DNA of 64,000 bases from positions 160,358 through 224,357 of the forward strand of contig CAVTPT010000002.1 of the NCBI GenBank assembly GCA_963736675.1, read 5' to 3'. The position numbers and the translations under genes were made by a program. Below, piece after piece: positions 3,850 to 46,184 of this stretch; within the stretch, counting starts at the first letter, position 1; every line of letters starts with the position of its first letter. Below the pieces are notes generated by a model that ran no database searches, had not been told where the DNA came from, and saw nothing but the letters and a program-made list of their open reading frames with translations. Source of the DNA: an uncultured Bacteroidales bacterium (GTDB taxonomy: Bacteria > Bacteroidota > Bacteroidia > Bacteroidales > VadinHA17).

Positions 3850-4652
3850 TTATGGAAAATGTATTTGAAAAGATCCCCATGGAAGGGGTAAAGAATATTA
3901 TTGTTGTTGCATCAGGCAAAGGCGGAGTCGGGAAATCGACAGTTGCGGCTAACCTGGCAATAGCAATGGCACGAAACGGCTATCGCACCGCACTCGTAGA
4001 TGCTGATATCTTTGGTCCTTCAATACCTAAGATGTTCGGTATTGAAGATGCCCGACCCGATGTCTCAGCTATCGGCGATAAAGAGATGATATTTCCGATC
4101 ATAAAATACGGGGTAAAAATAATCTCTATTGGATTCTTCATCGACCAGAGCCAGAGTCTTATATGGCGGGGTCCTATGGCAGCTAAAGCCCTGACCCAGC
4201 TTTTTGAGAACACTCAGTGGGGCGATATAGATTATATGATAATCGATTTCCCTCCCGGAACAAGCGATATCCAGCTCACTTCTGTCCAGAAACTGAATAT
4301 CACCGGAGCTATCATTGTGACCACTCCCCAGGAGATTGCAATCAATGATGCACGAAAAGCAGCATCCATGTTCATGAATCCTGACCTGAAAGTCCCTATT
4401 TTAGGAATAATTGAGAATATGTCGTGGTTCACTCCCGATAATCATCCCGACGAGGCTTACTATGTTTTCGGTAAGGGAGGCGGACTCAAACTGGCAAAAG
4501 AATTTGATACAAAGCTCCTTGGCCAGATCCCCCTCGTGCTTGAAGTCGGAGAGGCTGCTGAACATGGACTCAGTATTTTCAGCCAGAAAAATAAACTTGT
4601 GGTAACTGCCTTTGAAAAAATTTCAGAACAAATTATTTCAAAACAGGAATAA
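3846..4652 (+). CDS. Mrp/NBP35 (ApbC-type) iron-sulfur cluster carrier ATPase
   Basis: VASGKGGVGKST Walker A, DxPPGT motif (IIDFPPGTSD) and ENMS motif (GIIENMSWF). 4-nt overlap with the upstream gene. Confidence 0.85.
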   Translation: MIMENVFEKIPMEGVKNIIVVASGKGGVGKSTVAANLAIAMARNGYRTALVDADIFGPSIPKMFGIEDARPDVSAIGDKEMIFPIIKYGVKIISIGFFIDQSQSLIWRGPMAAKALTQLFENTQWGDIDYMIIDFPPGTSDIQLTSVQKLNITGAIIVTTPQEIAINDARKAASMFMNPDLKVPILGIIENMSWFTPDNHPDEAYYVFGKGGGLKLAKEFDTKLLGQIPLVLEVGEAAEHGLSIFSQKNKLVVTAFEKISEQIISKQE

Positions 4653-9349: not shown

Positions 9350-9758
9350 ATTGCTTATAATCACGCTAATTATCACAGTGTGGTTCGACTCTTTTCCGGG
9401 GTTACCACGCGCAATGGAAAATGAGTTAGTTAACATCAATAAATTAAGAGAATTAGTGAAATGTGACTTTAGTAAGTTTCTGGAAGTATAGGTTAGATGT
9501 TCTTAATTTATCTTATTTTTCTTTACTTTCTTTTGCTTCTCCAAAAGAAAGTAACAAAGTAAAGGAGCCCGGAAAAACCAACCCCACCCTTTTTTACGCC
9601 CGCTACACGTGGCTTCCCGCTACAAAAAAGGGTGTGGTTCGCACCTTTTCCGGTTTTACCCCCCGCATTACAAAATGATTTAGTTTACATCAACAAATGT
9701 GGTATCTATGAAATTCTTAAAGCCCTGGATATCTAACTTTTGTCTTTTGTCTTTCTTC

Positions 9759-9848
9759 GCCTCACCCCTTCCCGCGTTCGCGGGATTGAGTCGCTTCGCT
9801 CCTCAACACGCCTCAAGCCTCACGCCTTTTTCAGCCTCACGGCTTCTT
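9759..9848. repeat. REP-like element copy (core CCTTCCCGCGTTCGCGGGATTGAGTCGCTTCGCTCCTCAAC + CCTCACGCC-rich tail)
   Basis: Shares its core and tail with the copies at 11434, 11827, 13592 and 46050-46171 (the last in reverse orientation). Abuts the stop of the 9848-11149 gene. Confidence 0.7.
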
Positions 9849-11149
9849 CATTTAAATGTCACAAACATCAATACAGTATTATCAAAGTCATTTAGTTTAT
9901 CAGCCAGTTCTTCCAATTGTTTCTTTTTTTCAGGGAATTTTGGAGTATTGTTCTTAAAATCATCACTTGCAACATGTGCCTTAAGTTCATTTGCCGGCAC
10001 CCACATAACCATTGTTGAATCGTTGACCATTTTATCTGGCCTGAACCTTGGCCCGGCATCAATATCATTATAAAGACCGGTTGTAAACATAAAATTATCT
10101 GTGCTGGTTGGTTTACTGAATACAAAATCACCGGTTTTTTTATTATACACACCCAATACATTTGTTGTACTATACCAGATTTTATATCCTCCGGGCAGAG
10201 GGGCAAATGGCGTAAGCCTTTTTGCGGGAAAACGACTCCCAAAAGAACAATCAACAAAAAGATAATCATCAGTTTGATTAACTGCTTTAACAAAAAAATA
10301 ATCCATCCGGTAATTTTCCATTTTTTTTGACCTTTCAGAATCAGGCAATTTAAATTTACCAAGATTCAGGACATACTTTGGAATTAATTCATACTTATGA
10401 TTTAAAATGAATAAAGTGTCATTAAAGATTTCTTTGAAATAAAACTCGTTATTATATGTGTGAAAACACGCATCAAAAGTTGTAACCTTTACACTTCCGG
10501 TATTTGTAACGAATTTAATATAATTTACATATTTATGTTTTATTTCGCCCGATCGATTAATAATAAGGGCATTGTAATCGACTTGCCCATTAGCATTCGG
10601 AACATACCCTAAAAACAATGAATCATCCACAAGAAAAACCTGATCCATATAATATTGATTATCAACATTAAAAAACCCATTGTTTTTATCTATAAATGTT
10701 CCATCAATAGAATACTCATAAAGATCACCAAGCTGTTTTAAAAAGATTTTTCTATCTTTTGTTATCCCAATAATATAAGCTAATTGATACTCACCAGGAC
10801 CTCTGCCAATACTGCCTATATTTCTTATATATTTTCCGGAAGTATCATATAAAGTCAATATCAGATTTCCATGAATAAGCATATAATTGTCTAAAAAATC
10901 AGCATTATAAATAAATGTAAAAGGCTCACTGCCTTCAGATTGTAACGGCACATAATGTATATTATCTGTAAACTGACTTAAATTAACCACCTCCATTTTA
11001 TCTGCATTTGCTTCAAGATCAATGGAAATAATCTGGTTTCCAGTTTTTATCCCGTTTTTACAACCCAACGTTAAAAGCAAAATAATAAAACTAATATTTA
11101 ATATCCTCATATTAAGTGTGTTAGCTATATTAAAATAATAATTTGGCAT
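9848..11149 (-). CDS. 6-bladed beta-propeller lipoprotein (DUF5128/BF3164-like), paralog 1
   Basis: The lipobox LLLTLGCKN follows the internal Met, so the likely start is 11110. Length, composition and C-terminal motif (...DNTVLMFVTFK) parallel the paralog at 11914-13218. Confidence 0.65.
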   Translation of the reverse strand: MPNYYFNIANTLNMRILNISFIILLLTLGCKNGIKTGNQIISIDLEANADKMEVVNLSQFTDNIHYVPLQSEGSEPFTFIYNADFLDNYMLIHGNLILTLYDTSGKYIRNIGSIGRGPGEYQLAYIIGITKDRKIFLKQLGDLYEYSIDGTFIDKNNGFFNVDNQYYMDQVFLVDDSLFLGYVPNANGQVDYNALIINRSGEIKHKYVNYIKFVTNTGSVKVTTFDACFHTYNNEFYFKEIFNDTLFILNHKYELIPKYVLNLGKFKLPDSERSKKMENYRMDYFFVKAVNQTDDYLFVDCSFGSRFPAKRLTPFAPLPGGYKIWYSTTNVLGVYNKKTGDFVFSKPTSTDNFMFTTGLYNDIDAGPRFRPDKMVNDSTMVMWVPANELKAHVASDDFKNNTPKFPEKKKQLEELADKLNDFDNTVLMFVTFK

Positions 11150-11433
11150 AATAAGCAGAACTTAAATAAGATCGGTCACCCTTATTGATTTATCTTTCGC
11201 ATGTTACTGATTAGTCTCTCTTTTGCCGCAGTAGCAGAAAACGATTAGAAATAAGATCAATATTCCTGTTCTCATTATTAGAAGATTGATTTTTACTCAA
11301 TAACTCGCAGAACTGATCCGTAATTTACGAAGCTTTTTAATAATACGCTTAGGTATTTAGTTGTTTTATTAATTTCTCATGATAAATTATCCGGACATTC
11401 AGGTCCTGGTCTATGAGTTTCTTTACCCTCATA

Positions 11434-11474
11434 CCTTCCCGCATTCGCGGGATTGAGTCACTTCGTTCCTCAAC
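11434..11474. repeat. REP-like element core copy
   Basis: ccttcccgcattcgcgggattgagtcacttcgttcctcaac; hairpin cccgc-attc-gcggg. Confidence 0.7.
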
Positions 11475-11519
11475 TGCCAACTGCTAACTAAATGTACCCT
11501 CATGCCTCACGCCTCCTTT

Positions 11520-11735
11520 CCAAGGTTCCAAGGTTCCGGGGTTCCAATGTTCCAAGGTTCCAAGGTTCCAGGGTTTCAAGGTTCCAGGGTTCCAAGGTTC
11601 CAGGGTTCCAGGGTTCCAAGGTTCCAGGGTTCCAAGGTTCCAGGGTTCCAGGGTTCCAAGGTTCCAGGGTTCCAAGGTTCCAGGGTTCCAGGGTTCCAAG
11701 GTTCCAGGGTTCCAAGGTTCCAGGGTTCCAAGGTT
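11520..11735. repeat. tandem 8-bp repeat array (CCARGGTT) x27, with a 40-bp higher-order pattern
   Basis: Direct reading gives 27 contiguous 8-mers. The A/G position follows a repeating g-a-g-g-a pattern. The ORFs translated from it (GTLEPWN..., FQGSKVP...) are artefacts. Confidence 0.95.
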
Positions 11736-11751
11736 ATTCATATACAAGTAG

Positions 11752-11785
11752 TTCTTCAACTCTGGAACTCTGGAACTCTGGAACT
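11752..11785. repeat. inverted partner array (CTGGAACT) x3 of the 8-bp repeat, after the 16-nt spacer attcatatacaagtag
   Basis: The reverse complement AGTTCCAG matches the GGTTCCAG register of the left array at 7 of 8 positions. The same architecture occurs at 13405-13550. Confidence 0.85.
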
Positions 11786-11810
11786 TTACTGTCAACTACC
11801 AACTATATGT

Positions 11811-11909
11811 ACACTCACTCCTCACGCCTTCCCGAGTTCTCGGGATTAAGTCGCTTCACTCCTCAACACGCCTCATGCCTCACGCCTTTTTCAGCCTCAC
11901 TCCTTCTTG
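11811..11909. repeat. REP-like element copy (CCTTCCCGAGTTCTCGGGATTAAGTCGCTTCACTCCTCAAC + tail)
   Basis: Near-identical to the 13581-13680 copy. Its hairpin is cccga-gttc-tcggg. Abuts the stop of the 11914-13218 gene. Confidence 0.75.
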
Positions 11910-11913
11910 AAAG

Positions 11914-13218
11914 TTATTCTTTGGGGGTTACCATTACGAGAACCGGATTATCAGTCTCTTTAAGGGACCCGGCAAGTTTTTTGAGCTCGTCTTTCTTTTT
12001 TGGATCCTTCACCCTGGCTTTCTTAAAATCTTCGCTGGAAACATATTTTTTTAGTGTGTTAACATCACTAAATGAAAAGAATTTGCCATCACTACAATAT
12101 AAATTCCAAAAATCTATTCTCATACTGAAATCAGGGCCACCACTCAAATCATCTTTTAGTATATTCTTTGGTATTTTAACAGGAATACCGGCTATAGTCT
12201 CAGAGATCATTTCAACATCCAGTTTATATTTCCTATTTGTCCTTTTGTCGAAGAACATGTTTTTTATTGGAATACTACTATTTCGTGTTTTTTTTGTACC
12301 ATATGAATAGAAAACATACCGTGTTGTCTCAAATATGTCAACAATAAAGCTTGTATGATCGTATGGTATATCCGGGTTGCCTCTCATTTCGGGTGTGAAT
12401 AGAGTCCCATGTGTATTAAAAATCATTCGTGGTTTAAAAAAATTGTCTTTTGTCCCGACACAGAAAACAGTATCACTGAATTTTTCCATAAAGCAAACCA
12501 TATTACTAACGGAATAAACAAGCATATCATTTAATGCCTGGGAATTTCTTCCGCTAACCTTCTTGTACTTATAACAATTTGGTTTAAAATGAATTGTATC
12601 ACCTACGACATTTATCAATAAACTTAAAGTCGGCTCGGTCCCTCTCCATGGTGGTATTGCTAAAAATGCATTGTCTGTGGCAGGAACCATACTTACTCTC
12701 CATGGAGCTGGGTCTTTTAATGCTATTGATCTCTGGAAAGTAAACCCCGTATCAGAAATCTCATATACCAATAATTTGCGATTTAAGCTTGAAAGGATTG
12801 TCAGAATTTTATTATCAGAACTGACAGCAAAATCAGTAATGAACGAGTATTCTTCCGGACCTCTTCCTCTATTCTGAAGCTTAAATAGAAATTTGCCATC
12901 AATATCGAAGCACATTATCACACTCCCAAGCCCCCCACTGGTTTCAATATAAAATCTTTTACCTATGCTAATAAATTTCTGTATATTACTGCCTATCAAT
13001 GCGTTCTGCGATGTCTGTAATGGTATATACTCAACATTTGTAGCAATCTCAGATAAATTTTTAATTATGGTCTCCGTTTCTGAAAGTAGGTCGATTCCAA
13101 GAACCTGATCGATATTAGTTTGTTCATTAGTATTTGTCCTTCCACAGGAGCAAAGGAAGATTAGAAGAATGGGTAATATTGTTATTTTCATGATTACAAA
13201 ATTGATCTTCAACATCAT
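11914..13218 (-). CDS. 6-bladed beta-propeller lipoprotein (DUF5128/BF3164-like), paralog 2
   Basis: Lipobox LIFLCSCGR; the likely start is the internal MKITIL near 13191. Colinear similarity to paralog 1 (e.g. GRGPEEY vs GRGPGEY; the C-terminal ...DNPVLVMVTPKE). Confidence 0.65.
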   Translation of the reverse strand: MMLKINFVIMKITILPILLIFLCSCGRTNTNEQTNIDQVLGIDLLSETETIIKNLSEIATNVEYIPLQTSQNALIGSNIQKFISIGKRFYIETSGGLGSVIMCFDIDGKFLFKLQNRGRGPEEYSFITDFAVSSDNKILTILSSLNRKLLVYEISDTGFTFQRSIALKDPAPWRVSMVPATDNAFLAIPPWRGTEPTLSLLINVVGDTIHFKPNCYKYKKVSGRNSQALNDMLVYSVSNMVCFMEKFSDTVFCVGTKDNFFKPRMIFNTHGTLFTPEMRGNPDIPYDHTSFIVDIFETTRYVFYSYGTKKTRNSSIPIKNMFFDKRTNRKYKLDVEMISETIAGIPVKIPKNILKDDLSGGPDFSMRIDFWNLYCSDGKFFSFSDVNTLKKYVSSEDFKKARVKDPKKKDELKKLAGSLKETDNPVLVMVTPKE

Positions 13219-13404
13219 TTCGCAGAAATGATCTGTAATTTACGAAGTTTTTTAATAATATGCTTAATTATTTAGTTGTTTCTATTACCAAAAGCAGTAC
13301 CTCATTTTACCTTTCGCAGAATTGAGTCACTTCGTAGCTAAAACTACCTACTTTCCAACTGCCTCCTGCCTACTATATGTACCCTCACTCCTAACGCCTC
13401 CTTT

Positions 13405-13550
13405 TAAAGGTTCCAAGGTTCCAAGGTTCCAGGGTTCCAAGGTTATTCATATACAAGTAGGTTTTCAACTTTGGAACTCTGAAACTCTGGAACTCTGGAA
13501 CTCTGAAACTCTGGAACTCTGGAACTCTGGAACCCTGGAACTCTGGAACT
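13405..13550. repeat. second copy of the inverted 8-bp repeat structure: (CCARGGTT) x5, 16-nt spacer, (CTGRAACT) x10
   Basis: The spacer attcatatacaagtag (13445-13460) is identical to 11736-11751. Arm copy numbers differ from locus 1 (27 and 3 there, 5 and 10 here). Confidence 0.9.
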
Positions 13551-13591
13551 TTACTGCCAACTACCAACTATATGTACACTCACTCCTCACG

Positions 13592-13700
13592 CCTTCCCGA
13601 GTTCTCGGGATTAAGTCGCTTCGCTCCTCAACACGCCTCATGCCTCACGCCTTTTTCAGCCTCACGCCTTCTTCCGCCGAAGCTTCGGCGAAGGTGGGAT
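13592..13700. repeat. REP-like element copy followed by a 14-bp perfect palindrome GCCGAAGCTTCGGC
   Basis: Core ccttcccgagttctcgggattaagtcgcttcgctcctcaac, then the CCTCACGCC tail, then an extended hairpin around gccgaagcttcggc. Confidence 0.75.
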
Positions 13701-13769
13701 GCCTTTTATTACTTTTTAAAAAAAGTTTTGATTTCTGGGAATTATTTCGTAATTTTATTTTTTATTAAA

Positions 13770-14158
13770 TGAGAATCATTATTACTTAATAATGATTATT
13801 ACCTGATTTTGATTCTCAGATAATAATAGTTCTTAAATAATAACGATTATCAAACAGTAATGATCCCTGGCAGGGACCTATTATCAAATAGTAATGATTC
13901 TCAAATAACAATAGTTCTTATATAGTAAGATTTATCAAACAGTAAAGATCCCTGGAAAGGACCGATTATCAAATAGTAATGATTCTCAAATAACAATAGT
14001 TCTTATATAGTAAGATTTATCAGACAGAAATGACCACAGGGAGGGACCGATTATCAAATAGTAATGATTCTCAGATAACAATAGTTCTTATATAGTAATA
14101 TTTATCAGATAGTAACGATTATCAAATAACAACAATTCCTAAATAGTAATGATTATTA
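13770..14158. promoter_or_regulatory. array of Fur-family 7-1-7-type boxes upstream of the Fur/PerR-family gene
   Basis: TGAGAATCATTATTA at 13770-13784. TAGTAATGATTCTCA at 13889-13903, 13974-13988 and 14059-14073, and TAGTAATGATTATTA at 14144-14158 (reverse complements TGAGAATCATTACTA and TAATAATCATTACTA). Each matches TGATAATnATTATCA with 2-4 mismatches. At least 11 ATTATCA[AG]A / ATTTATCA[AG]A motifs occur through 14280. Confidence 0.55.
13796..14135. repeat. 85-bp tandem repeat, about 4 copies (AT-rich, each copy with a GC-containing mini-palindrome tccctg-g-caggga or a degenerate form)
   Basis: The anchor ttatcaaatagtaatgattctca recurs at 13881, 13966 and 14051, an exact 85-bp period. 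The flanking copies are diverged. Confidence 0.85.
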
Positions 14159-14308
14159 AATAATAACTATTCTTAAATAATAACGATTATCAAATAGTAA
14201 CTATTTACCCTTAATTTCAATTAGCTAACATTAACAATTATCAAACATTACCGATTTTCAAACAAATTCCATTATCAAATATTTTCCCTACCCCGACAAC
14301 AAGTACCC

Positions 14309-14737
14309 ATGGCAAACAAAACAGTGATCCGGATCCTGACAGAAAATAAACTCAAAGTAACTCCCCAGAGAGCGGCTATCCTCGAAGTATTACTCAGCCT
14401 GAAAAACCACCCCACAGCAGAAGATATTATTAACTACCTGCGAATTAGTTACCCCGCTATATCCCTAGCTACCGTCTACAAAAGCCTCGACCTGTTCGTC
14501 TCAAAAAGAATTATTGAAAAAATAAATACCTCCGGCGATATCATGAGATACGATACCTTCAAGGATCCACACCACCATCTTTATTGCTCCGACTCCGACC
14601 AGATAAGCGATTTCTACGATGAGAAAATCAATGAGATCCTAGAAAACCATTTCAGTAAAAACCCAATACCCGGTTTCAACATTGAAGATATTAAACTTCA
14701 GATCATCGGCAGATTTAAGGATAAACAAACCAAATAA
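14309..14737 (+). CDS. Fur family transcriptional regulator (PerR-like by context)
   Basis: LKVTPQRAAILEVL winged-helix start and HHHLYC metal-site motif. Followed by ferritin-like and peroxiredoxin genes. Confidence 0.85.
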   Translation: MANKTVIRILTENKLKVTPQRAAILEVLLSLKNHPTAEDIINYLRISYPAISLATVYKSLDLFVSKRIIEKINTSGDIMRYDTFKDPHHHLYCSDSDQISDFYDEKINEILENHFSKNPIPGFNIEDIKLQIIGRFKDKQTK

Positions 14738-14743
14738 TTGTCT

Positions 14744-14790
14744 TGAACCCACATGTTTTATTAAATATAAACAAGAATGAAATCAGTTAC
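14744..14790. repeat. degenerate copy (D) of the TGAAAC...GTTAC hairpin element
   Basis: tgaacccacatgt ... cagttac retains the 5' arm and the terminal GTTAC but lacks the 3' acatgtggg arm. Confidence 0.3.
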
Positions 14791-14937
14791 CCCCAAAAGG
14801 TGGCCCACCCCCCACCTTCAGGATATTCAGTGCACCCATTGAAAAAAACCCATTTTTAAACACTTAACCAGAATGATATTAATCCTGACATAACAACCTG
14901 AATTCAAATTTTATGTTTAACAATAAAAAAATCTATT

Positions 14938-15438
14938 ATGGCTGAAATTGGAAGATCAATCGTTAAAATGGATGTTGATGAATTACTCAACTTATTAAAC
15001 AAAGCTCTGGCCGACGAATGGCTGGCTTATTATCAATACTGGATCGGGGCTAAAGTTGTCAAGGGACCTATGAAAGATGCTGTCATCAGCGAACTTGTAC
15101 TCCATGCTACCGAAGAACTGACCCATGCCGAATTACTGGCAGGCCGTATTGTCCAACTCGGAGGTACCCCGGTAATCTCCCCCGATGAATGGTCGAAAAT
15201 TACTAACTGCGGCTATGATGCACCCTCCGATCCATACGTGGAAGTGGTTCTCGATCAGAATATTAAAGGAGAACAGTGCGCTATCAGGACATACAGCAAA
15301 CTACTTGATGTTACACGTGAAGCCGACCCGGTGACTTATAATATTATCCTCCGGATTATAACCGACGAAGTTGAACATGAGGAGGACCTTGCAGCACTTA
15401 AGGAGGATCTTGAACTGATGCTTGCCAGAAGAAGATAA
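14938..15438 (+). CDS. ferritin-like, Dps-like (DPSL/bacterioferritin-related) protein
   Basis: Four-helix ferritin di-iron ligand pattern (E...ELTHAE ... EVEHEED). Two Cys are spaced 23 residues apart (TNCGY...EQCAI), as in DPSL-type proteins. Confidence 0.65.
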   Translation: MAEIGRSIVKMDVDELLNLLNKALADEWLAYYQYWIGAKVVKGPMKDAVISELVLHATEELTHAELLAGRIVQLGGTPVISPDEWSKITNCGYDAPSDPYVEVVLDQNIKGEQCAIRTYSKLLDVTREADPVTYNIILRIITDEVEHEEDLAALKEDLELMLARRR

Positions 15439-15508
15439 ACTTTCACATAGTTTATTCCAATCAAACCATTAATTATGAATCAATAATTATTAACTAATAT
15501 TTAAAATA

Positions 15509-16213
15509 ATGGAAGAAAAAACTTATTCAATGCCACGTATCGGCGAAAAAGCACCTGAATTTAAAGCAGTTACCACACAGGGCAATATAAATTTCCCATC
15601 CGATTACCAAGGAAACTGGGTAATCTTGTTTAGCCATCCTGCCGATTTTACTCCGGTATGCACCTCAGAATTCATGACTTTTGCCAGCATGGAAAAAAAA
15701 TTCAATGATGCAAACTGCAAGCTTGTCGGACTCTCTGTCGACGGACTCTATAGCCATATCGCCTGGCTGAGGACCATTAAAGAAAAAATTGAGTACAAAG
15801 GGATGAAGAATGTTGAAGTTAATTTCCCCCTTATCGAAGATATTACAATGGAGGTGGCTAAAACCTACGGTATGCTTCAACCCGGTGAAAGTTCAACAAA
15901 AGCCGTCAGAGCAGTATTCTTCATTGACCCCAAAGGGATTATCCGTGCAATCATTTATTATCCCCTCAGCCTCGGCCGAAACTTTGATGAGCTCTACCGC
16001 GTGATCATAGGATTACAGACCGCCGATGCATTTTCAGTTGCTCTGCCTGCCGACTGGCAGCCCGGAGACGATGTAATTGTACCTACGGCAGGCTCATGCG
16101 GAACTGCAAAGGAAAGAATGGAAAGTAAGGGCGAAATGACATGCTACGACTGGTTCTTCTGCACAAAGAAACTCGATAAAGAGCTGGTGCTGAAAACTGT
16201 TCTGAAAAAATAA
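15509..16213 (+). CDS. peroxiredoxin (Prx6/1-Cys-type, PVCTSE motif)
   Basis: FSHPADFTPVCTSEF active-site motif. The 234-aa length is typical of Prx6-like enzymes. Confidence 0.9.
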   Translation: MEEKTYSMPRIGEKAPEFKAVTTQGNINFPSDYQGNWVILFSHPADFTPVCTSEFMTFASMEKKFNDANCKLVGLSVDGLYSHIAWLRTIKEKIEYKGMKNVEVNFPLIEDITMEVAKTYGMLQPGESSTKAVRAVFFIDPKGIIRAIIYYPLSLGRNFDELYRVIIGLQTADAFSVALPADWQPGDDVIVPTAGSCGTAKERMESKGEMTCYDWFFCTKKLDKELVLKTVLKK

Positions 16214-16354
16214 TACACTTTGCTTTATTTACTGACTCTGTGTTCCTCTGCGTTAATTACCGCTACTCTTCGTTAATAACTGCTAATTATAATTTTACAC
16301 TGAGAAATTCCACGGATAAAGCCAGAGAGACACAGAGTTTATACACTATAAAAA

Positions 16355-16972
16355 ATGAATGAGTTCGATATTAAGGCATCAGGCTGGGACCTGAATCCAA
16401 TGCATCTCGAACGGTCACGTGCCGTTGTATCGGCATTACTGAAACAGATCCCGCTTAATAAAGAGATGTCAGTTATGGAATACGGTGCAGGAACCGCAAT
16501 CACCAGCTTCCTGCTTAAGGAACATGTCAGCAACATAACCATGATGGACAGCTCGCAGGAAATGGTTAAAATCATGCAGGAAAAGATCAGCGATGCAAAT
16601 GCAGATAAGATGAAAGCCATCCGGTTTGATCTTGAGTCAGAGGAGTGGAAAGAAAACAGGTTCGATCTTATTATAACCCAGATGGTGCTCCATCATGTAT
16701 CTGATACGGAGAATATAATAAGAAAATTCCATTCTCTTCTTAATCAGGCTGGCTACCTGGCCATAGCCGATCTTTATCCCGAAGATGGTTCATTTCACGG
16801 CGAAGGATTCTCAGGCCATAAAGGTTTTGATCCGGAATCTTTGTCGCTTCTGATCAGGAGAACAGGATTCGCTGATATCAAAACAGATAAATGTTTTGTA
16901 ATCAGTAAGAAAATAAACGAAACCACCGTTAAGGAGTTTGATGTTTTTCTAATCACTGCCGCCAGAACCTGA
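16355..16972 (+). CDS. class I SAM-dependent methyltransferase
   Basis: VMEYGAGTA (motif I) and a downstream LIITQMVLHH pattern. Confidence 0.8.
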   Translation: MNEFDIKASGWDLNPMHLERSRAVVSALLKQIPLNKEMSVMEYGAGTAITSFLLKEHVSNITMMDSSQEMVKIMQEKISDANADKMKAIRFDLESEEWKENRFDLIITQMVLHHVSDTENIIRKFHSLLNQAGYLAIADLYPEDGSFHGEGFSGHKGFDPESLSLLIRRTGFADIKTDKCFVISKKINETTVKEFDVFLITAART

Positions 16973-17001
16973 TATACAAAAGTTGATATTTTATTTGGAT
17001 T

Positions 17002-17286
17002 ATGAACGCAGGTTCACTATCTTTATTCAAAATATCAGCCATGAAAGCTCCATTCTTTATTAAACTGTTCCTGGTATTACCCTTACTGCTTTTTGCTGAC
17101 TATTTCATAATGGCCCTTTTAGGTTGTTCAACATGCCTTTTTGGCCCTGGAAATGATTTTTATTGCGGTCCGTTTTGTCTTGCCGGTAAAATTATCTTAG
17201 CTTTATCGGCAATATTTTTCATTTACCTGATATCCCCTGACCTGAGGGCTCTTTTCAGATCAAAAAAGAATGGCGCGTCCGCCTAA
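17002..17286 (+). CDS. small Cys-rich membrane protein (hypothetical)
   Basis: Two predicted TM helices and CSTC / CGPFC motifs. Likely start at MKAPFF (17041). Its 3' end overlaps the DUF134 gene by 17 nt. Confidence 0.35.
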   Translation: MNAGSLSLFKISAMKAPFFIKLFLVLPLLLFADYFIMALLGCSTCLFGPGNDFYCGPFCLAGKIILALSAIFFIYLISPDLRALFRSKKNGASA

Positions 17287-17674
17287 AAACAGAAAGATCA
17301 GCAACCCTCCGAAAATGAAGGGGTTTAAGCCTTATGGATTACCTTCCTGTAAAGTAGAATCAATAAAACTCAAATTTGAAGAATACGAAAGTATGAGGCT
17401 TGTTAATTATGAGTCTCTTGATCAGGAACAGGCAGCCCTGCAGATGAATGTTTCAAGACCGACTTTTACCAGGATTTATAACAAAGCCCTGAAACAAATT
17501 GCCAGATCTTTTGTCGAAGGAAAAGCAATAGAGATCGAAGGAGGAAATTACGAACTGGAGAAAGACTGGTACCGCTGCAAAAAATGCTATAAGCACATAG
17601 AGGGAATTGAGAATCACAGCAAATGTAAGGATTGTACTTCCTTTGGGAGTAACGAGCTGGTGAGATTAAACTGA
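17270..17674 (+). CDS. DUF134 (UPF0251) putative DNA-binding protein with Cys-rich C-terminal extension
   Basis: MARPPKNRKI..FKP and a sigma-70 region-4-like HTH (QEQAALQMNVSRPTFTRIYNKALKQIA). C-terminal CKKC...CKDC. Confidence 0.75.
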   Translation: MARPPKNRKISNPPKMKGFKPYGLPSCKVESIKLKFEEYESMRLVNYESLDQEQAALQMNVSRPTFTRIYNKALKQIARSFVEGKAIEIEGGNYELEKDWYRCKKCYKHIEGIENHSKCKDCTSFGSNELVRLN

Positions 17675-17690
17675 ATCAATACATATAAAG

Positions 17691-18083
17691 ATGGAAATTA
17701 CCTTTGACGGCGGTAAAATCATTACTGCCCACTTAAATGATCATATTATAACTACCGACCAGCCTGTGGAAGGCGGAGGCTCCAATTCAGCACCGGCTCC
17801 TTTCGATCTGTACCTGGCATCAATTGGAACATGTGCCGGAATATATGTCAAATCATTCTGTGACAACCGGAAAATTTCTGCTGATAATATTAAAATAATT
17901 CAGACTACTTCATTCAGTAAGGAGACAGGCCTTCCGGTTAATATTAAGCTGGACATAAAATTGCCATCCGATTTCCCGGAGAAGTACAGAGCACCTGTAA
18001 TAAATGTGGCTGAACTATGTAAAGTTAAAAAATCGATCCATAATCCGCCCCGGTTTGAAATTATCACCTCACAAGCTGAATAA
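17691..18083 (+). CDS. OsmC family protein
   Basis: APAPFDLYLASIGTCAGIYV motif. Size is typical of the family. Confidence 0.7.
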   Translation: MEITFDGGKIITAHLNDHIITTDQPVEGGGSNSAPAPFDLYLASIGTCAGIYVKSFCDNRKISADNIKIIQTTSFSKETGLPVNIKLDIKLPSDFPEKYRAPVINVAELCKVKKSIHNPPRFEIITSQAE

Positions 18084-22583: not shown

Positions 22584-22728
22584 GATAAATCATTTTTTAA
22601 TTATTACATCTTTAAGCTCAGAATCACTATTATATTAAGCATGTTTTTCCACATATACCTTTTCGTATTCGCGCAATTAAGTACCTTCGTTCACGCCTCA
22701 CGCCTCACGCCTCTATCTTAGTCAATGC

Positions 22729-46027: not shown

Positions 46028-46049
46028 ATGGGGAGCACTTGAGTTTGAG

Positions 46050-46184
46050 GTAGAGCTTGAGATAGAAAGTGTTGAGGAACGAAGTGACGAAATCCCGCGA
46101 ATGCGGGAAGGTAGAGCTTGAGATAGAAAGTGTTGAGGAACGAAGTGACGAAATCCCGCGAATGCGGGAAGGTTAAGGTTGAGA
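46050..46184. repeat. 61-bp tandem repeat x2 (+ partial third), each unit containing a reverse-oriented REP-like core
   Basis: gtagagcttgagatagaaagtgttgaggaacgaagtgacgaaatcccgcgaatgcgggaag occurs at 46050-46110 and again, identical, at 46111-46171. Confidence 0.9.

Follow-up and report, generated by a model that had tools for sequence, protein, structure and literature searches.

A 30-unit tandem array of Fur-type operator boxes upstream of a PerR-like regulator gene in an uncultured Bacteroidales bacterium

What purpose might a long repetitive tract serve when it stands directly in front of the gene for a regulator whose family binds short palindromic boxes? The question is raised by a locus of an uncultured Bacteroidales bacterium (lineage VadinHA17), which we studied in a stretch of 64,000 nucleotides from GenBank assembly GCA_963736675.1 (contig CAVTPT010000002.1, positions 160,358 to 224,357 of the forward strand); this whole stretch is referred to here as the window, and positions are counted from its first letter. 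From about 13770 to 14290 the window holds an AT-rich repetitive tract (26% G+C) immediately upstream of an open reading frame (ORF) at 14309-14737 that encodes a Fur-family protein. Few bacterial metal and redox sensors have been studied as well as the proteins of this family, and the physiological meaning of their oligomerisation on DNA is debated; to our knowledge, this oligomerisation has been studied solely on short clusters of overlapping sites. The original prediction for this tract, made from its letters, was an array of Fur-type boxes built partly from 85-bp tandem repeats. We find that the feature is a real, non-random, iterated operator lattice with a design conserved across a clade of relatives; its function we infer, and part of its length may be neutral.

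When the tract was sliced at 17 bp, positions 13770-14279 of the plus strand resolved into 30 successive units (510 bp) in a single register with a net indel of zero, each unit comprising a 7-1-7 box (two heptamers around one central base) and a 2-bp spacer. Self-match of the array was 0.49-0.75 at lags of 17k for every k from 1 to 26 but only 0.24-0.37 at lags of 17k +/- 1, the background over all lags being 0.30. The 85-bp repeat was recovered by Tandem Repeats Finder at 13810-14200 (4.6 copies, 83% matches), which also called periods of 17, 51 and 170; however, it is not the base period, because 85 is 5 x 17 and the tract keeps to the 17-bp register, so that five units make up one higher-order block of 85 bp. 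A basic repeat of 85 bp was ruled out by the 30-unit register itself. In pairwise comparisons, 85-bp copies 1-3 were 84-91% identical to one another and the later copies 59-78%.

With a weight matrix derived from the array, 26 of the 30 units scored above 9 bits, one scored 5.6, and three fell below 0, the last being those disrupted by a GC palindrome element. The array contains about 26 recognisable boxes, and the five boxes first counted were too few, even though each of the 15-mers named at the time (13770, 13889, 13974, 14059 and 14144) is present with 2-3 mismatches to the Fur consensus TGATAATNATTATCA. The companion count of at least 11 ATTATCA[AG]A-like half-sites stood up as well: the relaxed form occurs 13 times in the array region (20 times on the plus strand of the whole window) and the exact form 8 times (13 times on that strand). 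At three or fewer mismatches, TGATAATNATTATCA matched the 64-kb window 25 times versus 7.7 expected, a number that none of 100 shuffles reached, and 11 of these matches fell inside the array, all on the plus strand. The consensus unit TAGTAATGATTATCA has two mismatches to the Fur box TGATAATnATTATCA and, by hand comparison, three to the PerR box TTATAATnATTATAA; it is symmetric at 10 of 14 heptamer positions. Reading by eye revealed no Fur-like box at a 6-bp offset inside the repeat unit. Sequence and matrix scans did not find the 17-bp unit elsewhere in the 64-kb window; within that span, therefore, the repeats are confined to the array and are not scattered irrespective of promoters. A dispersed repeat family was also rejected on the absence of the unit from viral contigs and, as an exact 25-mer, from metagenome contigs, and a coding sequence on the absence of any ORF of at least 40 aa within the array.

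The GC palindrome, which takes the place of two facing half-sites, had been described as a component of each repeat copy. Only the first 85-bp copy has it in perfect form; copy two (13947-13963) carries two mismatches, copy three (14032-14048) is degenerate, and later copies have none. We regard it as probably a passenger of the 85-bp block. On the minus strand, the palindromes at 13862-13878 and 13947-13963 read as weak intrinsic-terminator-like hairpins, with a 7-bp stem followed by ATTACTGTTT or TTTACTGTTT.

Because repeats in 85-bp blocks are prone to mis-assembly, the array might be an artefact of assembly and the true locus shorter. The only second record of the regulator protein, a 987-bp short-read contig, ends within the array, 316 bp upstream of the gene, and the unmatched exact 25-mer in metagenome contigs also fits this idea. 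We nonetheless give it almost no credence: the source contig is 864 kb on record, the 85-bp copies differ at many positions and so are not collapsed or duplicated reads, the register is perfect and shows no indel noise, and relatives from independent assemblies reach 24 units.

The protein encoded next to the array proved to be PerR-like. Its best solved relative was B. subtilis PerR (2fe3, E = 5.5e-18), to whose regulatory-site residues His37, Asp85, His91, His93 and Asp104 its residues H34, D82, H88, H90 and D101 align; the roles of these five at the metal site we take to be those given in the PerR literature. The five ligands were invariant or almost so among 24 relatives. The structural Cys4 zinc site, on the other hand, is missing: C93 is the only Cys, Ser stands at the second CxxC position, and the protein lacks the C-terminal pair. 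Among NCBIfam models, PerR (NF052545) scored best, at 106 bits under a cutoff of 180. Given the missing Cys4 site and the missed cutoff, we term the protein PerR-like and not an equivalog. Sensing of peroxide by this regulator is the function that its ligand set would suggest.

To place the array in context, we compared 160 orthologous loci (designated L), 80 from genomes and 80 from metagenomes; the closest regulator in the species-representative collection was 65% identical. The 80 genome loci (about 0.5 Mb) and the window were scanned for periods; arrays, counted at six or more units, occurred at period 17 in 12 sources, solely right upstream of the regulator gene. Periods of 13, 15, 16, 18-20, 22 and 23 yielded no arrays in the same loci apart from artefacts: L039 and L049 matched at every tested period, probably through masked N runs or homopolymers, and the period-16 signals were harmonics of 8-bp microsatellites of the window. 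Altogether 25 relatives (5-24 units) and the window were flagged for arrays, with several more weak cases, and the 30 units of the window were the longest array among the loci compared. Distance clustering of 161 regulator sequences put all but one of the flagged relatives in a single protein clade of about 47 loci; outside it only 1 of 114 loci was flagged, a borderline five-unit case. Within the clade the unit sequence varied by species (TGAGAAT, TAGGAAT, TAATATT and TAGTAAT types), whereas the period was always 17 and free of indels, and symmetry reached 12-14 of the 14 heptamer positions in L001, L010, L013, L005 and L014. Copy number differed even between closely related species, two with regulators 94% identical having 20 versus 17 units.

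Orthologues outside the array clade revealed where the boxes are likely to have come from. Eighty of 106 carry the palindrome GAGAATnATTCTC at two or fewer mismatches, 30 of them perfectly, compared with 0 of 100 in control DNA, and the centre of this single palindrome lies 25 bp upstream of the ATG (interquartile range, -26 to -25). The consensus of 77 non-array orthologues, ATTATTA-AA-aGAGAAT.ATTCTCa-TT-tgAaAATtATTA, comprises a half box, a strong box and a weak box, and since these share the 7-1-7-plus-2 phasing, the 17-bp spacing is ancestral. The arrays of the clade would accordingly be iterations of the ancestral operator of the family, and the claim that an iterated Fur-type operator array serves the adjacent regulator is strongly supported by the single boxes of these orthologues together with the array clade. 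The pattern of conservation within arrays points the same way. The central, unspecified column had the lowest mean information (0.65 bit versus 0.86-1.65 elsewhere), was the least conserved of the 17 in 10 of 22 arrays (about 1.3 expected by chance), and ranked among the lowest four in 16 of 22; a free central base is what is expected of an operator, and conservation within the arrays is in that sense operator-like. Nearly all unit matches in the more complex arrays lay in one phase and no second phase was present, and units diverged by 25-35% from the consensus of their own array yet kept the 17-bp spacing without phase breaks. Two further comparisons were set aside: covariation of recognition-helix residues with half-sites showed a trend (KV with AGAG, KI with TGAG, KT with TAGG/TAAG) too noisy to use, and the clade-specific residues 13, 27, 50, 52 and 59, considered as a clue to dimer contacts, all lie in the DNA-binding domain and are uninformative on lateral contacts.

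At its 5' end the array adjoins a Bacteroidetes-type promoter-like motif, the sole match to TTG-N17-21-TAnnTTT[GA] on both strands of 13200-14400, which we presume, from the Bacteroides -33/-7 consensus, to be a promoter of this type. The motif agrees with the consensus promoter of the 77 orthologues (TTGacTT...TAAATTTG), and the gap between the -7 box and the first operator box is 12 nt in the window and in the family consensus alike. The first box agrees with the family operator TGAGAATnATTCTCA in 12 of its 14 specified positions and stands just as far from the -7 box as the single operator of non-array orthologues does; boxes 1-4 of the window are orthologous to those of its nearest relatives, L001 and L171. 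The first box is thus probably the ancestral primary operator, judging from these alignments, and together with the promoter it forms a conserved module spanning 13728-13784. At its 3' end the array stops about 30 bp short of the PerR-like gene and, from a transcription start predicted near 13762-13768, would lie inside a transcribed leader of about 545 nt. No internal promoter was supported: TAnnTTTG was not found on either strand of 13200-14400, and the best matches in a scan for sigma-70-type promoters (9 of 12) were near shuffle expectation.

A predicted leader of this length admits a different level of action, namely a repetitive 540-nt RNA leader to which a protein binds or through which translation is controlled, or a different ligand for the DNA, for instance a nucleoid-associated protein or the product of the DUF134 gene in the same cluster. 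The DUF134 product is a putative DNA-binding protein conserved in the cluster, and the GC palindrome could be a separate site. We consider such explanations very unlikely. The unit is of the palindromic Fur-family operator type and tracks the regulator gene across the 160 loci, the GC palindrome decays from copy to copy, and some relatives have their arrays upstream of the promoter-like motif. A structured RNA or riboswitch was rejected directly, since the fold of the 556-nt plus-strand RNA was no better than that of shuffles (z = -0.9) and there was no Rfam match in the array at E <= 1.

Taken together, these results lead us to read the 510-bp region as a tandem operator lattice for the PerR-like repressor encoded just downstream, on which a phased complex of many repressor dimers would form; we put the probability of this reading at roughly 0.55. 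The ancestral autoregulatory operator, a single strong 7-1-7 palindrome with weaker half-sites phased at 17 bp on either side, would have been iterated within the clade and, in this genome, further amplified in 85-bp five-box blocks until boxes filled the interval from the promoter (13728-13757) to the start codon (14309). Dimers of the metal-loaded repressor would sit on one box after another, in steps of 17 bp. By geometry only, at 10.5 bp per turn, each step corresponds to a rotation of about 223 degrees and a rise of 58 A, and five steps (85 bp) to 8.1 turns, which returns to the same face; adjacent dimers would therefore wind round the helix and share no face. The result would be a continuous helical repressor-DNA complex over the transcription start and about 540 bp of transcribed leader that shuts off perR-dpsl-prx, where dpsl and prx denote the adjacent DPS-like (DPSL) and peroxiredoxin genes, by promoter-proximal occlusion and serial roadblocks, until peroxide-driven oxidation of the regulatory metal site releases the protein and opens the operon. 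Contacts between neighbouring dimers are suggested by the register, in that a fixed register despite 25-35% unit divergence argues for a constraint on spacing of the kind that such contacts would impose.

The same boxes could instead be bound without contacts between dimers, either as a titration sink, in which up to about 30 dimers are sequestered per chromosome copy and set a threshold for free regulator, or as independent serial roadblocks, in which many boxes multiply the chance of blocking elongation. Box evidence for these versions is identical to that for the phased complex; the predicted leader favours roadblocks, and no other box cluster occurs in the 64 kb, which leaves most regulator sites seen here at the gene of the regulator itself. 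We judge them unlikely, as independent sites need no fixed spacing, yet every array has exactly 17 bp, and the arrays that several relatives carry upstream of the promoter-like motif would be unable to block elongation. The original prediction had named a cooperative platform, a titration sink and a nucleoprotein structure as possible roles, and sequence would not by itself separate the three.

Several observations weigh against the phased complex. Expansion in multiples of 17 bp preserves register by itself, and the argument from spacing is to that extent no more than suggestive. The promoter-like motif lies at the 5' edge of the array in the window, L001, L081, L085 and L095 (and, by eye, L082/L083) but at the 3' edge in L004, L006, L009, L013/L096, L101 and L102; it could not be placed in the remaining array loci. 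With some arrays upstream of the promoter, roadblocks cannot be the common mechanism. In the 3'-edge cases a junction of boxes, ATTATC-TT-TG, can itself be read as a -7 box. Most boxes of the window stem from the recent amplification of 85-bp blocks and could be neutral, three of the 30 units have lost their box to the GC palindrome and several more are weak, and in the nearest relatives, L001 and L171, the leader is about 340 nt long and has just 4-5 boxes after the promoter and a further two close to the ATG. The genomes are rich in intergenic microsatellites, which makes repeat expansion easy here. Finally, in two relatives for which 9 and 4 contigs of the same protein were available, with upstream DNA at least 99% identical, copy number was unchanged.

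Most of these points also favour neutral or selfish tandem expansion, by slippage or unequal recombination, in which only the 1-4 promoter-proximal boxes are functional: the identity of the blocks indicates recent amplification, the nearest relatives manage with few boxes, microsatellites abound beside the array and in relatives, and the three ruined units were amplified all the same. For the extra copies of the window, neutral amplification is the main rival and a serious one. It appears rather improbable nonetheless, because diverged arrays of 7-24 units have been retained in about 25 species of a single clade and virtually nowhere outside it, conservation within them follows the operator pattern with its free central base, they have gathered no indels, and the short arrays of the two relatives sampled repeatedly were stable across 9 and 4 independent samples. 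Bacterial genomes, moreover, normally delete useless repeats.

In TT-spacer arrays (L004, L006, L009, L013, L018, L030 and L070), the junction ATTATC-TT-TGAGAAT spells TATCTTTG, which matches TAnnTTTG; as the box junction fits the Bacteroidetes -7 consensus, operator junctions and promoter element overlap in sequence.

A stronger version of the phased complex, which we consider doubtful, is that PerR-like repressors of this clade act, instead of as single dimers, as a one-dimensional lattice polymerised in strict 17-bp register on a dedicated DNA track of up to 0.5 kb at their own operon and so constitute an all-or-none, ultrasensitive redox switch. The filament as a whole would form and break down cooperatively, peroxide would destabilise it by oxidising a few dimers, and track length would be an evolvable dial for threshold and tightness.

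Comparison with known systems indicates that what is new here is a long, fixed-period array form of a known type, the autoregulatory operators of the Fur family. The 7-1-7 box model for Fur, PerR and Zur was reportedly set out for B. subtilis by Baichoo and Helmann in 2002. The array resembles such boxes in its heptamers (TAGTAAT-g-ATTATCA versus TGATAAT-n-ATTATCA for Fur, each with one free central base) and in its place at the promoter of a Fur-family gene near oxidative-stress genes, and one dimer per box would be expected. The consensus half-site of the present family, GAGAAT, however, matches none of the Fur, PerR and Zur half-sites, and while the Fur-family regulons known to us have one box or two overlapping boxes per promoter, the array has 30 non-overlapping boxes at a fixed centre-to-centre distance of 17 bp. 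Several sites at one promoter also occur in H. pylori, where fur has three operators at its own gene, and in Streptomyces, where Zur oligomerises at zitB; in both, higher-order occupancy alters output, but the sites are two to a few, irregular, and not a clade-conserved fixed-period repeat. Plasmid iterons and parC/parS-type centromere arrays share the phased direct repeats, on which dimers build a helical nucleoprotein filament, but they adjoin plasmid replication or partition genes, whereas the array sits at a chromosomal stress operon and its units are palindromic operators. A replication origin or iteron identity for the array was rejected: no rep or par gene was noticed among the ORFs at 10-19 kb, cumulative GC skew did not turn at the array, its neighbours are lipoprotein and stress genes, and in relatives it accompanies the perR gene.

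Clusters of E. coli Fur sites come nearer in kind, with adjacent dimers on different helix faces, extended footprints and polymerisation observed by electron microscopy (PMC2189734). These clusters comprise 1-14 overlapping sites exactly 3 or 6 bp apart over 19-142 bp, with a mean of 35 bp (Chen et al. 2007, PMC2189734). The boxes of the array, by contrast, do not overlap, are spaced at 17 bp over 510 bp, and lack the 3- or 6-bp offsets that define those clusters (PMC2189734). Engineered lacO/tetO and decoy arrays (for example PMC11398425) are likewise tandem repressor sites that titrate their factor and can block polymerases; they are synthetic, whereas the array of the window would be natural and at the regulator's own gene. 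Like promoter variable-number tandem repeats and contingency repeats, it is a tandem repeat in a regulatory region with a unit number that varies between lineages, but those tracts have units of 1-8 bp, whereas here the units are putative 17-bp protein-binding boxes and did not vary among samples of the same relative. A full-text search of a library that leaves out most subscription journals turned up no account of phased operator arrays, either at Fur-family genes or in Bacteroidetes.

The locus and its approximately 25 relatives supply a regular lattice of natural origin, with 5-30 non-overlapping boxes at fixed spacing, on which stoichiometry, cooperativity, spacing dependence and roadblock strength become directly measurable. 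For a large group of uncultured anaerobic Bacteroidales, whose ecology is shaped by oxygen tolerance, the comparison defines the operator GAGAATnATTCTC and an ancestral 17-bp design of two to three boxes, and DPSL, peroxiredoxin and OsmC are the probable core regulon. If the extra boxes tune the threshold of the response, the arrays would be a clear example from bacteria of regulation evolving by repeat expansion of binding sites.

Table 1. Features of the window and arrays of orthologous loci.
Feature	Position	Strand	Details
Bacteroidetes-type promoter-like motif	13728-13757	+	-33 TTGATTT (13728-13734), -7 TAATTTTA (13750-13757)
First box TGAGAATCATTATTA	13770-13784	+	preceded in phase by half-site TTTATTA-AA (13761-13769)
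Array of 17-bp units, 30 units	13770-14279	+	7-1-7 box plus 2-bp spacer, consensus TAGTAAT-g-ATTATCA-AA
Higher-order 85-bp repeat (5 units), about 4.6 copies	13810-14200	+	Tandem Repeats Finder, repeat family D2, pairwise identities
GC palindrome GATCCCTGGCAGGGACC	13862-13878	.	in place of two facing half-sites
PerR-like Fur-family regulator, 142 aa	14309-14737	+	PF01475, E = 8e-28
DPS-like (DPSL) ferritin-fold protein	14938-15438	+	Pfam Ferritin; NCBIfam archaeal DPS, below cutoff
Weak single box CAATAATTATTAACT	15481-15495	+	14 nt before peroxiredoxin start codon; 9.8 bits in position weight matrix scan
1-Cys-type peroxiredoxin	15509-16213	+	Pfam AhpC-TSA and 1-cysPrx_C; NCBIfam PRK13189, 333 bits, above cutoff
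Array of L010, 24 units			TAGGAAT-a-ATTCCTA-TT
Array of L021, 23 units
Array of L008, 15 units
Array of L018, 14 near-identical units
Array of L014, 13 units			TGATAAT-a-ATTATTA-TT
Array of L013, 9 units			TGAGAAT-a-ATTATCA-TT
Arrays of metagenome loci			L082, 20 units; L083, 17; L085, 15; L108, 12; L089, 11; others besides

The genes downstream of the array are as first described, a Fur-family regulator followed by a ferritin-like/DPSL protein and a 1-Cys peroxiredoxin (Table 1), and the cluster continues with genes for a methyltransferase, a DUF134 protein and an OsmC-family protein (14309-18083 overall). The order regulator-DPSL-peroxiredoxin-(methyltransferase)-(DUF134)-OsmC is kept in relatives of the clade, the cluster being seen in L001, L002, L016 and L171. 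Identity to the nearest relative was 90% for DPSL, 95% for peroxiredoxin, 81% for DUF134 and 80% for OsmC but only 65% for the regulator and 57% for the methyltransferase, which have diverged far faster than the other genes of the cluster. The DPSL and peroxiredoxin genes are probable targets of the regulator. Besides the weak box before the peroxiredoxin gene, which may be due to chance, no convincing further members of a regulon were found in the 64-kb window. The 200-bp gap between the regulator and DPSL genes holds a G+C-rich hairpin (AAGGTGG...CCACCTT, 14795-14818) with no T-run after it and, 18 nt before the DPSL start, a -7-like motif, TATGTTTA (14912-14919); in view of these two elements, DPSL may have a promoter of its own instead of being co-transcribed.

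Other repeats were observed in the window and in relatives, and a tendency to intergenic tandem repeats seems to be general in these genomes. Behind each of two paralogous lipoprotein genes lies a composite intergenic element (11490-11890 and 13320-13700), with fragments at 9693-9850 and 22691-22713. It consists of a (AAGGTTCC)n run followed by a (GGAACTCT)n run as an imperfect inverted repeat, which gives a long hairpin, and is flanked by 7- and 17-bp repeats of the CCTCACGCC type and a small palindrome (CCCGAGTTCTCGGG); its microsatellite hairpins, which lie outside the array, gave spurious Rfam matches to plant miRNAs. A similar CCTCACGCC repeat stands upstream of the regulator in L171 (991-1058). 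The region 9693-13673 is a tandem duplication of about 1.9 kb (repeat families D5-D7) with flanks 90-96% identical, and its block carries a gene for a DUF5128 six-bladed beta-propeller lipoprotein (9848-11149 and 11914-13218, minus strand). Farther along, a 61-bp tandem repeat at 46048-46184 (2.2 copies, 96% identical) includes the hairpin CCCGCGAATGCGGGA and is similar to the CCCGCGTTCGCGGG motif that the intergenic element has near 9760-9807. Heptamer microsatellites occur beside the orthologous regulator in relatives that lack a 17-bp array, as (CTTCCGT)n immediately before the promoter of L012 (2745-2885) and as A-rich 7-bp repeats past the stop codon in L002 (3420-3490), and in L016 a periodicity in multiples of 7 bp, known from the period scan alone, lies downstream of the gene at 3954-4132.

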